A DNA stretch of 52,136 nucleotides, from positions 1 through 52,136 of the forward strand of contig JAZGFI010000006.1 in NCBI GenBank assembly GCA_036479435.1, written 5' to 3'. This document shows positions 13,126-18,152 of this stretch, one piece after another; positions within the stretch are counted from its first letter, which is position 1; each line of letters opens with the position of its first letter. The notes under the pieces were generated by a model that did not search any database, had not been told where the DNA came from, and saw nothing but the letters and a program-made list of their open reading frames with translations. Origin of the DNA: Planctomycetota bacterium. Lineage in GTDB: Bacteria > Planctomycetota > GCA-002687715 > DRQF01. Position numbers and translations under genes: made by a program.

Positions 13126-14376
13126 CTATCGTTGGGATTTTTCGGGAGCCGTTGGTACCTGATGCCTTCTAAACTCGGGAATCCGGGGCGGGTGATCTCG
13201 GTCAAAATTGCGGAGCCAAGCGAACTCGGCCGTTTGCTTTTTGATTCGCCACCAAGCTTGCACCTTGCTGAGGATTTCGGGGTCCTTTGGGCCGAAGCCG
13301 AGCTTGCGAACCCTGGACAAAGTGCAGGCAGCCTTGACCAAAAGCGAGAGTGGAAGTGTGAGTTGCGGGGTTTGAACCTTTCCCAAGCTGACACTCTTCT
13401 TCGGCACCTTCAGACGGCCAAGGTGAACAGCGTTTCGATTGGCTAATTGGTGGATGACTCGCAGGTGGTCGACAGCTCTGGCGTCAAAAGGCCGGTCGTC
13501 GACAATGAACTCGCCGAGGGCGTAGACCGCGGCCGTCCTCATCCTCGCGCCGATATAGTCGCTGGCACCTTTGCGGGGGGCGACGAGGGTGAGTTCAACC
13601 ACGGTGTTCCAGTCTGAAGAGCCCTTGCCATTGAGAAATCGGGCCGTCATGAGGCGGAGGTCGTGGATGCAAAGGTGTTGGCAATGAAGGTCTTCATGGA
13701 TCTTCTTTTTTAGGGCTCTCAGCGCCAAGCGCGAAACGGGGTTCGCGGCCGCTTTCAATTTGTGAAACTTGGCGTGCCGCTCGAGCATTACATCGAGTTT
13801 GCGGGCAGCATGGCTGAAAACCTCGGAGCTTTCTGCAACTTCAATGCACATGCAACCCGAGGAACCAAAAACCTGCTGGCCATCAGGGTCCATCAACAAG
13901 AAAAAGGCGTAGATCTGTTTGGTCCAAGGATCTCGATAATAATCGGCCTCCCAAGCCTTCAGAGCGGGAAGGCCCTGAGGGAATCCTGAATCCGTAGCGT
14001 TGATGAGAACTGGTACCGTTCTCTGGTTGATTGTCTCGGGAACCCCGGGCCGCTCTAGCATATTGATACGCATGGCGTGCTGGCCAGCTCAGACAAATGG
14101 GCTGTCAGAGTCCCCCATGAAGCGGACGTCAAAAACCAAGAGTACTGGTCGTCCCAGCTCCTCTGCCCGCTTGCGAGCGGCGTCAAGGTTCTTCGCCCAA
14201 CGTACCTTGCCCTTATAGTCCATCGACCGGGCGTGGGTCGACCGCTTCAATGATCTTGGGCCCTCAGCAGGCTTGGCCTCCGTGGCCCGCCGCTCTTGGC
14301 CCAGGGCACTGGACGCAAGACCGAGCATCGTCAGCCCCAAGAGCAGCATTCGAAACGGTGCGGTAGTGAGCTGCAT
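13126..14376 (-). CDS. Putative secreted thioredoxin-fold selenoprotein (SelN-like active-site segment), UGA at 14089-14091 read as Sec96; 416 aa
   Basis: ORFs 14089..14496 and 13126..14073 share a frame and are joined by TGA plus 5 codons. Signal peptide, then W..NLDAARKRA...GRPVLLVF...U...MR...L...V...IN...VPV and LLMDPDG thioredoxin-like elements span the TGA. Confidence 0.75.
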
Positions 14377-14406
14377 GGACGTTTCCCCGCAGGAATGAAA
14401 ATTTGG

Positions 14407-14494: not shown

Positions 14495-14580
14495 ATAGAT
14501 TACTTGCACCCTTCGGATATCGAAGACTCACCACGACTTCAGCGGCGGTGACATCGAGTTGACAGACTTTGCAGCTCCGG

Positions 14581-15128: not shown

Positions 15129-18100
15129 CTAGTTTCCAATTGGCAAGCCTGGGGACTCGGCGAAGAGTTTTTGCATGAAGACGCCTTCTTCTTTGAAGGC
15201 TGTGTCCTGCGGGAAACGAATCACCGCGAGAGCTGCGGCTTCTAGCCCCCGCTGAGGGGCGTCGCCATCGACGGCCTCCCAGGCGACGGCGAAGTAGCTC
15301 GGTTTGTGGTGCAAGACCTCGTCGAAAAGTCCGAGCGCCGTTTGCCAACTTTTCGCCGTCATGAAGCGGGCGGCTTGTCCCATGGACGTGGCCACGGAGT
15401 CGCGCCGGCGTTTGTCATCTTGCTCGGCAACCCATTCAAGATGCGAGCGGATCGCCTTCGCGTCCCCGGCGACCAAGGCCAAGAGAAACTCGACTTGGCG
15501 GCGGGTCTCATCTTGTTGTTGAAGCTGTTGGGCGTTGGGATGACCTTGATCGAGGGTGCGCTTGAACTCTTTGCTTAATCGTGCCGCCAGTTGCTGGTCG
15601 AAGGTCGCATGTCCTTCGTCAAAAAGGCGCGTCAAACGCCCAGCCCAGTAGTAAGGAGACGCTTTCGTCCAGGCGAGGCTTTGTACGAGGCCGGCGGTCC
15701 CAGCCCGCGCCGTGGTGACGCGGCTCGCCGGTGGCTTCCCAGTTTTTTCCAACATGGCTTCAAACAGGGGTCTGCCAAAGGCGGCTTCGTAGTAGTCACC
15801 GACGATTGAGTCCACCAAAGCTGGAGTGTCCTTAGTGTCGGGATCGCTAAAGGCAATATCAGAGATCCAGGTCTCGGCGTGGGCCATGGCTAAGCGCATG
15901 TTTTCATCGGCGAATGCAGCGTCGCGATCAAGCCTCAGAGTCTCAGCCACGAGACTGACGAAACTGCGCACGAAGTTCCGCATCTCAGCAAGCCCTGGAT
16001 CTTCCTCAAAGCGCTTCGGATTATCTTTCAGCGTCCCCAGCATGAATTGGAGTTGGGGTCCGGCAAACCGGACCAAGTGCTCACCGACGAACTTTCGACC
16101 GGCAACCGCGTCCTTGCCCGTCATGATCGCCAGCGCCGCGAAGTTAAGCGAGCTAGAAACAACGGCTGGATTCCGGCGACGAAGGAGCGCGTTGATCTTT
16201 TCATCAACAATCTTCAGCTCGCGTTCGATGGCTTTTCTGTCGCCTAATTCGTAGAGGTCGCCGAGCAACCTCAGCCGAGTTTGAAGGGCTGGGTCCTCGC
16301 CGAACGCCATGGCTTTTCGTAGATAGCCTACGGCTTGACCGTGCTGCCCGGTGCGCTCGGACAAGCCCGATAACTCCAAGTAATTCGCGGGGTCGTCGTC
16401 ACCTGAGGCGACGAGATTTTTCATCTTGTCGAAGCCCCGCGCGTAGGTGTGGTAGTGCCAATCGCGCTGAACATCGATCATCGTGGTCGCGTAGTCGGCA
16501 TGGAGAAAAATCCGCCAGCCCAGAGCCCACATCGATCTTGTATTCTCGCCCGAAAAGCGAATGGCGACGGGCAGCGCGTCTGGGTCAACGCTCTCCAAAG
16601 AGCCGAAGTGTCGGTAGGCAGCGGCCAGGGCCTCCGGGAGTTTGTCGGCCTTGAACTCTAGCGGGGGGCCGGTGTGAAGCACGTAGACGCGCCAGCCTTC
16701 TTTTGCATCCTGCGCCGCAAAAGCCAGCGCGTTGTGGCGCGGGACATTCATGATGTGCGCGAGCCTTCCCTGACGCTGCGCCAGGGCCTGATAGAGCTCG
16801 GCAATGTCGTCACAGTCACCGCGACACACGCCACCTGCAGCCGTCGCGAGGGTTTGTTCGACAGATTGATGAATCTCCCCCATCGCGCCTTCGTATCCGA
16901 TGAGACCGGGGTGGCGCGTGTCGGGGCTGTCGTTCACATAAGAGAACAGGTACTCCCCCACGAGGTCGAGGTGTGCTGCGTCGGGTAGGGCCTTGGCGGC
17001 TTGATCTAGGAACTCACTGGGCCGGCCAACCTGTGGTGGCAAGACCAGGCCATGCACCGTCGCCAGCATGCGAACACCTCCGGTCCAGCTCGGCACCACC
17101 AGATGCGGCGGCAAGTAGCCCGCCAAAACCTGGGGTCGACGTCGGTCCTTAGCCGGAAAGTGAGCCCGCCAGGTATTCTCTTCAACCAACAGCCCTTCTT
17201 GATGATTCCAACGCACCAGCTCGGCGTCCTCGACATAGGCCACGGCCTCGAGGATTTTGGCGCTGGCGGGATCGGCCCCGGCCGCAATCTTGACAATGAC
17301 TTTGACGCTGGGAGCGTTACGGGCGTAATCCGGCTCCGGCGCATCCGCCGCCCAGGTCGTCATCTCAGGCTGGCGATAGACCCAAAGGCGGCGGCCAAAG
17401 GTGTCCTTTAGCAGTTGGTATTCTCGGCCTTCTCCGCGAAAAGTCGCCAGGGCTCGAGGGCGTAGCGAGGCTGCAACCGCTGCCTCGACGGCTTTCACTT
17501 CTTGAGCCTCGCCGAGATAGTTGCGCAGCCAACCGTTTTCCACCACGCGACGCGCAAGCGCCGGGGTGACGTGATCGTCGTCATCGCTGGTGGCGTGCCG
17601 CGGCAGGCGGCTAATGAGGTGCTTCACGGCTTTGCGCGCCAAGGGACTTCCCCATGACTCAACCATAGCTTTGAGTTTCGCCACCGCTGCCTTTAGCTCG
17701 GCATCGACATCGGCGCGATCACTTGCGGCCTCGGCCTTGAGGACGGCATCCTTCACGATGAGGTGATCAGAGGTGATGAGATGGGGCCCGGCCAAAAGGC
17801 TCCAGCCCAAACGGATCCCGGCCAAGCCGACCTCGGCCTTTTGGGCGCGAGCCAACAGATCCGAGACATGATCCAGAGCGGCAAAGTGGTCGCGTTCGAT
17901 CACCTTGAGATCGACAAAAATCTCAGAGTCTCCCACCCGGATGGAAGGCCGCAGATCGCCATCGACACCCGTGACGCGGAATTTTTGGTCCTGGGCACTC
18001 TTCAAAAAGAGCGCGTCACCGTCGCGCACGAAGGCCGGTGATTTCGGCAGCACTTCGAGCAGAGTGTCCGCGTCCCCGGCTTGGGCCCGAAGGCCTCCTG

Positions 18101-18152
18101 CGGCAAGCAACAAGGCGAACACGGCGAGACAAAGTTGACGAATGGCGATCAT
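15129..18152 (-). CDS. Large secreted protein with a transglutaminase-like core and TPR-like helical C-terminal half
   Basis: Signal peptide; GVCRGDCDDIAELY...PRHNALA...VYVLH; TPR-like YLELSGL...GQHGQAVGYLRKA; AGGA RBS. Confidence 0.7.
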   Translation of the reverse strand: MIAIRQLCLAVFALLLAAGGLRAQAGDADTLLEVLPKSPAFVRDGDALFLKSAQDQKFRVTGVDGDLRPSIRVGDSEIFVDLKVIERDHFAALDHVSDLLARAQKAEVGLAGIRLGWSLLAGPHLITSDHLIVKDAVLKAEAASDRADVDAELKAAVAKLKAMVESWGSPLARKAVKHLISRLPRHATSDDDDHVTPALARRVVENGWLRNYLGEAQEVKAVEAAVAASLRPRALATFRGEGREYQLLKDTFGRRLWVYRQPEMTTWAADAPEPDYARNAPSVKVIVKIAAGADPASAKILEAVAYVEDAELVRWNHQEGLLVEENTWRAHFPAKDRRRPQVLAGYLPPHLVVPSWTGGVRMLATVHGLVLPPQVGRPSEFLDQAAKALPDAAHLDLVGEYLFSYVNDSPDTRHPGLIGYEGAMGEIHQSVEQTLATAAGGVCRGDCDDIAELYQALAQRQGRLAHIMNVPRHNALAFAAQDAKEGWRVYVLHTGPPLEFKADKLPEALAAAYRHFGSLESVDPDALPVAIRFSGENTRSMWALGWRIFLHADYATTMIDVQRDWHYHTYARGFDKMKNLVASGDDDPANYLELSGLSERTGQHGQAVGYLRKAMAFGEDPALQTRLRLLGDLYELGDRKAIERELKIVDEKINALLRRRNPAVVSSSLNFAALAIMTGKDAVAGRKFVGEHLVRFAGPQLQFMLGTLKDNPKRFEEDPGLAEMRNFVRSFVSLVAETLRLDRDAAFADENMRLAMAHAETWISDIAFSDPDTKDTPALVDSIVGDYYEAAFGRPLFEAMLEKTGKPPASRVTTARAGTAGLVQSLAWTKASPYYWAGRLTRLFDEGHATFDQQLAARLSKEFKRTLDQGHPNAQQLQQQDETRRQVEFLLALVAGDAKAIRSHLEWVAEQDDKRRRDSVATSMGQAARFMTAKSWQTALGLFDEVLHHKPSYFAVAWEAVDGDAPQRGLEAAALAVIRFPQDTAFKEEGVFMQKLFAESPGLPIGN

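Follow-up and report, generated by a model that had tools for sequence, protein, structure and literature searches.

We present here a gene on the minus strand of a 52,136-nucleotide stretch of Planctomycetota DNA (contig JAZGFI010000006.1, assembly GCA_036479435.1; hereafter, the window) that appears as two open reading frames (ORFs) and is very likely one gene with an in-frame TGA read as selenocysteine (Sec). Conservation and the accompanying machinery make insertion of Sec at codon 96 nearly certain, and export of the product is highly probable. Our preferred reading of the whole, that this single gene with UGA as Sec encodes an exported, thioredoxin-fold, single-selenol oxidoreductase of the periplasm, is probable. 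The protein and its relatives apparently form an uncatalogued family of exported thioredoxin-fold selenoproteins.

The minus-strand frame runs from 14376 to 13126 and specifies 416 residues with one in-frame TGA (14091-14089, codon 96), followed by five codons and then by the ATG at 14073 that starts the 315-aa downstream ORF. A public protein collection stores the two halves apart, as proteins of 95 aa (P0003) and 315 aa (P0002). An earlier note on this DNA, which gave no strand, had described two ORFs that share a frame and are split only by this TGA and five codons; this was borne out, and the peptides that it quoted from the joined ORFs are all present in the 416-residue translation. Its proposal that the two form one gene with UGA as Sec is supported by the TGA/Cys column and the joined homologues described below. 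Feature coordinates are listed in Table 1. A longer ORF starting at 14496 was dropped in favor of 14376 on account of the Shine-Dalgarno-like motif, the leader, and the database start. No Shine-Dalgarno-like motif was seen before the ATG at 14073, and a sigma-70-like promoter was looked for and not found. The codon-usage score per codon is neutral in the upstream half (0.002) and 0.034 in the downstream half, with alternative frames far lower. Assembly error as the cause of the TGA was ruled out by contigs from 4 of 4 runs (3 samples and 2 studies, some of them possibly the origin of this DNA), all of which cover the position with no other letter. Genome-wide reassignment was ruled out because TGA is a normal stop in this genome, the commonest one of long ORFs (623/1416). 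Three PSCyt1 domains mark the genome as probably planctomycete; a DUF1559 search drew a blank, and the best-labeled runs come from an invertebrate metagenome.

Table 1. Features of the gene and its surroundings (window positions).
Feature	Position	Strand	Description or basis
Shine-Dalgarno-like GGGGA	14384..14388	-	7 nt ahead of ATG 14376; read by eye
Whole gene, read through one TGA	13126..14376	-	416 codons plus TAG; homologues similar on either side of TGA
Signal peptide predicted at residues 1-26, cleavable, without a lipobox	14299..14376	-	Hydrophobic peak at residues 6-26; similar leaders in homologues
Thioredoxin-fold domain, residues 55-206, DUF255/DsbH/DsbD-gamma type	13759..14214	-	AlphaFold2 model
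In-frame TGA, predicted selenocysteine 96	14089..14091	-	Column of the first Cys of CxxC in DUF255 proteins
SECIS candidate A (that of the earlier note)	14058..14071	-	5-bp stem; UCAA loop at +23, lacking G
SECIS candidate B	14037..14047	-	4-bp hairpin, G-first loop GUU at +46
Cys175	13852..13854	-	Co-occurs with Cys236
Cys236	13669..13671	-	Partner of Cys175
All-helical C-terminal domain, residues 222-392, long-form clade only	13201..13713	-	AlphaFold2, mean pLDDT 89.5; alignment; genome search

Homologues with the same TGA are 35-37% identical to the protein over ~330 aa spanning both sides of that codon. The protein query matched in 25 of 401 genomes of a sample of the phylum, and 31 loci yielded 33 matches to a domain profile (30 with TGA, 2 with TGC, and 1 short of the column). 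After two duplicates from overlapping loci were removed, 30 distinct sites, this gene included, have TGA at 28 and TGC at 2, counts that are not independent since the genomes are kin; no further stop lies inside any domain hit. Of the TGA sites, 20 lie in the narrow family, which has long and short forms, 7 in more distant subfamilies, and 1 in a VPGUxxT member (L037). Both TGC sites fall in the narrow family, among its long and short forms, and Sec/Cys96 is kept in 10/10 long-form sequences that span the column. The 72 database relatives mostly start just after the column (53); 14 span it (12 with C, 1 with R, and 1 with G) and 5 cover other parts, where C may partly be U displayed as C, and Cys codons read from DNA number only 2. 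The search for homologues with Cys or TGA in the column and similarity on both sides, as suggested by the earlier note, thus succeeded; among DNA-verified homologues, every sense codon there is one for Cys, and the halves are joined wherever DNA covers both. Together with the distribution of the machinery, the TGA/TGC pattern is as Sec predicts and not as a nonsense mutation predicts, and a nonsense mutation was ruled out by this column. Word-indexed protein searches returned nothing beyond the gene's own half, and a scan of genome contigs with the single protein as the query gave no match.

TGA-containing paralogues also occur in tandem, three in a row and two in a row (G339:C92, loci L040 and L042; G326:C3, locus L035). 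A 652-aa database protein (P0012) that begins past one Sec column and breaks off shortly ahead of another hints at a tandem protein with two Sec residues. By eye, the ORF lists of 10 regions show no conserved gene neighbors that would name a substrate, a point against the preferred reading; neighbors within the window are glycosyltransferases and a pyrophosphatase. The window also holds a 1007-aa ORF (15129-18152, minus strand) with no Pfam hit at an E value of 0.01.

The genome contains selA, selB, and selD above cutoffs as well as tRNA-Sec (selC), the full selABCD set that the earlier note had proposed to locate, and selD itself carries a TGA. Among the 21 other TGA genomes, selA is present in 20, versus 288/401 across the phylum sample, and tRNA-Sec scores above the cutoff in 19; the lone genome without selA is 84% complete and carries selB. 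No selA, selB, or tRNA-Sec was found in either TGC genome (completeness, 94% and 91%). One congeneric pair shows both states: G233 (L029) has TGA with selA, selB, and tRNA-Sec, versus TGC and none of the three found in G291 (L031). The change from Sec to Cys is described as rare in bacteria in a 2026 review (PMC13188914). Congeneric Sec/Cys pairs tied to the presence or loss of the machinery offer a clean natural test of what Sec contributes. The selA rate in the phylum sample is high for a group without a selenoproteome link in the literature searched, where nothing was found that pairs Planctomycetes or Planctomycetota with selenoprotein terms.

The predicted leader supports the earlier claim of a secreted protein; it was judged from hydrophobicity and homologue leaders. 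An AlphaFold2 model built from 68 sequences (mean pLDDT, 86.6) matches the DsbD-gamma-like structure 3f9u (Z, 11.9; rmsd, 2.7; 121 aligned) and the DUF255 structure 3ira (Z, 10.7; rmsd, 3.7; 141 aligned), followed among the top matches by AGR3 (Z, 10.2), DsbH, and UAS (Z, 8.9). Foldseek points to the same structural group, at E values above 0.001. This fold match and the alignment to the first Cys of DUF255 proteins agree with the earlier placement of the TGA at the redox residue of a thioredoxin fold, and they show the predicted Sec96 where the active-site helix begins, in the position of the attacking Cys of thioredoxins. A CxxU or UxxC partner is absent, as had been noted; Gly stands at +2 and there is no Cys at +3, leaving a single Sec and no CxxC dithiol. 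The residue before strand 3, which we take to be the cis-Pro position of thioredoxins, is Ala, Gly, or Ser in 32/32 long-form sequences and never Pro, so classical disulfide exchange may not apply. Cys175 and Cys236 are both present in 19 of these 32 sequences, both missing in 12, and discordant in 1, and from this co-occurrence they likely form a disulfide pair. The C-terminal domain matched none of 48,161 chains at a Z score of 5 or more (best, 4.1), a missing match that is no proof of a new fold, and it had no Foldseek match at an E value of 0.001 and no Pfam hit. Long forms that cover this helical domain were found in 7/401 genomes, with at least three copies in one.

PMC13188914 gives a bacterial SECIS consensus with G in the first two loop positions and the loop ~16-37 nt from the UGA, and it places some selenoprotein genes outside this model. 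The hairpin scan required -3 kcal/mol, less strict than the energy limit of that study, and 4 stacked pairs. A consensus hairpin follows 19/28 TGA sites and 0/2 TGC sites, where synonymous shuffles expect 5.1/28 and the background rates are 13% for 1500 Cys codons and 10% for 615 TGA stops. The 9 TGA sites without a consensus hairpin at the usual distance include this gene, whose loop at +23 is UCAA and whose G-first loop at +46 breaks the published distance rule; both points count against the preferred reading. SECIS windows were separated from control windows by the position-and-loop test and not by folding-energy z-scores; folding energy after the TGA was unusual at 0/28 sites (z below -1.64).

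The hairpin GCGUA-UCAA-UAUGC without a loop G, reported earlier at +23, does exist, and its register is kept with two compensating pairs in one homologue (L015); it is no more stable than synonymous shuffles (z, -0.99), and a better-conserved hairpin lies at +46. The four closest homologues have a G-first loop at +45 on stems of 5-8 bp, so that a G-first loop at +45/46 is found in 5/5 of the closest group, four of the five being from one genus, against a background of 2.3%. Synonymous shuffling yields an equally strong stem in 9% of cases for this gene, whose stem is the weakest of the five, and in 0-7.5% for the four homologues. Only 2 of the 45 fourfold-degenerate columns never vary across the five, one of them a Gly codon in the candidate B hairpin; part of the stem is dictated by a Pro-Gly-Val-Pro peptide, which counts against it. 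The +23 hairpin is probably not the best SECIS candidate, the one at +46 being better conserved. As the recoding element, the +46 loop would have a little better than an even chance, the +23 loop would be a considerably weaker candidate, and some other structure would be slightly weaker again. A broader scenario is tentative and, taken whole, rather doubtful: in this subclade, the SECIS may have moved to 45-46 nt past the UGA, outside 16-37 nt, with SelB recoding over a greater distance than current models or search tools permit. The family, whose C-terminal domain may have a new fold, could likewise be one offshoot of a large and uncatalogued group of single-Sec thioredoxins, exported by Planctomycetota and other bacteria, that was the source of the active-site domain of animal selenoprotein N. 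A SECIS at +46, if true, would widen the rule for bacterial recoding.

Under the preferred reading, SelB and Sec-tRNA would insert Sec at codon 96, as conservation and machinery suggest, and the 26-residue leader would be cleaved on export. Sec96, which alignment and model place at the attacking-Cys site, would act as a selenolate without a CxxC partner on a disulfide, sulfenic acid, or peroxide of an envelope target. Recycling could proceed via a DsbD-type membrane electron donor (the genome has one DsbD_TM gene) or via the Cys175-Cys236 pair, and the helical domain might, at a guess, select the target.

The leading rival, itself unlikely, accepts Sec and makes the protein a periplasmic metal or ligand binder or a redox sensor instead of a catalytic oxidoreductase, in which Sec96 and C-x-C/C-x-x-x-C clusters bind a soft metal or switch the helical domain. 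The lack of a resolving Cys beside Sec and of Pro before strand 3 would suit such a role, as would the extra Cys at 175, 177, 232, and 236 and the presence of the noncatalytic AGR3 and UAS among the nearest solved folds. Against this, among 32 long-form sequences, Cys177 occurs in 10 and Cys232 in 1, and the 175/236 pair is missing in 12, whereas position 96 is Sec or Cys in every spanning sequence and coincides with the attacking position of CxxC enzymes. It is very improbable that UGA is no longer efficiently recoded here, the SECIS having decayed and the gene being a decaying or two-piece remnant. The absence of a consensus SECIS within 16-37 nt, the weak +46 stem, and the merely neutral codon usage of the upstream half would fit decay, but both halves are intact and similar to homologues with the same TGA, no ribosome-binding motif precedes the second ATG, the 4 runs show no variant, alternative frames score far lower, and two separate products would part strand 1 from the rest of the fold, with no leader on the large half.

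A third rival, that the protein is a bacterial orthologue of selenoprotein N (SelN) with a SelN-like function, is likewise very improbable, and orthology is largely refuted. PMC12839072 describes SelN as having an SCUG motif, an Arg four residues after Sec, an EF-hand, and an N-terminal membrane anchor. When GTDB genomes were scanned for the motif, 3 stretches matched. Two of these are in-frame bacterial genes in which S-C-TGA-G is accompanied by a SECIS-like loop of the G-first kind; they are bacterial SelN orthologues (L048:1-825, plus strand; L049:2673-3863, minus strand) from uncultured Burkholderiales and Vulcanimicrobiota metagenome-assembled genomes (MAGs). One of them retrieved a sea-star protein, P0076, named only "EF-hand domain-containing," which we take to be of SelN type since it has a hydrophobic stretch in its N-terminal part, an EF-hand, and a motif followed by Arg at +4, as described in PMC12839072. 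The L049 product and P0076 align over 397 columns with 26% identity (E, 7e-39), so true bacterial SelN orthologues exist elsewhere. A doctoral thesis reportedly describes a Poribacteria SelN orthologue.

Some evidence does draw the family toward SelN. Its profile aligns, Sec on Sec, with P0076 at an E value of 1.8e-5 and with a bacterial SelN orthologue at 2.3e-11, short-form relatives carry C-U-x-G-G-R, and both families have a lone Sec in an exported or luminal protein. The link to a VPGUxxT selenoprotein is as good (E, 2.2e-9), and BLAST finds no similarity between the protein and P0076 (best E, 0.5, elsewhere in the protein). The SelN-like label of the earlier note was therefore overstated: with a three-sequence SelN-domain profile, the protein does no better (8.4 bits) than a DUF255 protein does (9.1 bits); short forms score 14-39. 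The ungapped lineup with eukaryotic SelN given in that note, tested here against the animal sequence, holds only in part: R (+7) and LE (+11/+12) agree and N does not; DUF255 proteins also align ungapped in the same region. The protein reads F-V-U-A-G-Q-H and lacks SCUG with Arg at +4. Pfam EF-hand hits are present in P0076 and absent here, but the bacterial SelN orthologues likewise give none, so this absence alone is not decisive. The long N-terminal region of SelN is also missing, since the thioredoxin domain begins at residue 55 after a leader that looks cleavable. In a 45-row tree, SelN rows group apart (100/100) and the protein lies in the long-form clade (97/91, 13/14 rows), with the deep order not settled. 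Judged by sequence, it is not a SelN orthologue and appears to be a distant, superfamily-level cousin, a kinship shared with VPGUxxT. Like SelN, it would work with one Sec at the attacking position in an oxidizing compartment. No SelN structure was present in the PDB copy searched.

Other TGA genes were seen in the genome. In the window, 33175-32141 (minus strand) encodes a LolA-like exported protein with a Lys/Arg-rich tail and two S-TGA-G-P repeats (TGAs at 32381-32379 and 32327-32325), each trailed by an equivalent hairpin; no homologue was found in 60 other genomes searched, and Sec there is only putative. Elsewhere, three more Trx7-type genes have a TGA at the redox position (L043:2030-3181, plus strand, and L045:1579-1830, minus strand, both in G000:C46; L044:1960-3207, minus strand, in G000:C262), with the motifs F-C-U, C-V-U, and U-I-P-U, the last a partial match, to the start of NF041199; two of the three have consensus SECIS-like loops. 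In a further gene (G000:C1, L046:1478-3355, plus strand), a Trx7-like domain whose active position carries neither Cys nor Sec is fused to prenyltransferase/squalene-cyclase-like repeats.

These results add a well-supported selenoprotein family that curated models overlook and that gene callers split, leaving 53/72 database relatives as fragments, and they place selenocysteine outside the cytoplasm in a phylum where selA is common. The soluble bacterial members would make it easier to study the single-Sec thioredoxin chemistry that they have in common with SelN; as models for SelN itself, the true bacterial orthologues are better suited.

Known families come near the protein without including it. 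Pfam gave no hit at an E value of 0.01, and no NCBIfam model reached its cutoff. The VPGUxxT models NF041383 and NF041382 came closest, scoring 20.5 of 275 and 12.1 of 350 bits with no VPGU motif present; NF041199 gave no hit at an E value of 1 and weak hits in 3/14 relatives only. The 2026 inventory of 119 families in Table 1 of PMC13188914 holds no SelN-like name and no fitting motif, the nearest entries being VPGUxxT and Trx7/PDZ. For two natural homologues, the ESM Atlas returned unnamed clusters (0.92 and 0.91), thioredoxin/HEAT leads below 0.9, and no SelN cluster. No description of the family was found in the accessible literature; the supplements of PMC13326102 and PMC12013277, BSepDB, and groundwater-MAG candidates could hold members.

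The family probably belongs to a Trx7/DUF255-type selenoprotein radiation that also takes in the VPGUxxT proteins and the SelN domain. VPGUxxT proteins (OS_HP5 in PMC13188914 Table 1) share the same Trx7-type domain start and have Sec in the same column, and L037, a full member (285 bits), was retrieved by the protein described here, which differs in its F-V-U-A-G motif, a longer loop before Sec, and another C-terminal domain. The Trx7/PDZ (seleno)protein NF041199 is likewise a Trx7-type exported selenoprotein; ours has no PDZ domain, has another motif, and falls far below the cutoff of 300. DUF255/Thioredox_DsbH (PF03190; 3ira and 7tkv), Thioredoxin_7 (PF13899), DsbH (2ju5), and 3f9u share the fold and the position of the attacking residue; unlike them, the protein carries Sec instead of the first Cys and lacks the second, and it has inserted helices and a helical C-terminal domain of its own. 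With selenoprotein N, it has in common a homologous thioredoxin-type domain, a single Sec in the same position, and an exported or luminal location, but it lacks SCUG, Arg at +4, the EF-hand, the transmembrane anchor, and the long N-terminal region, and it belongs to a separate clade in which the thioredoxin domain comes first and a helical domain follows.
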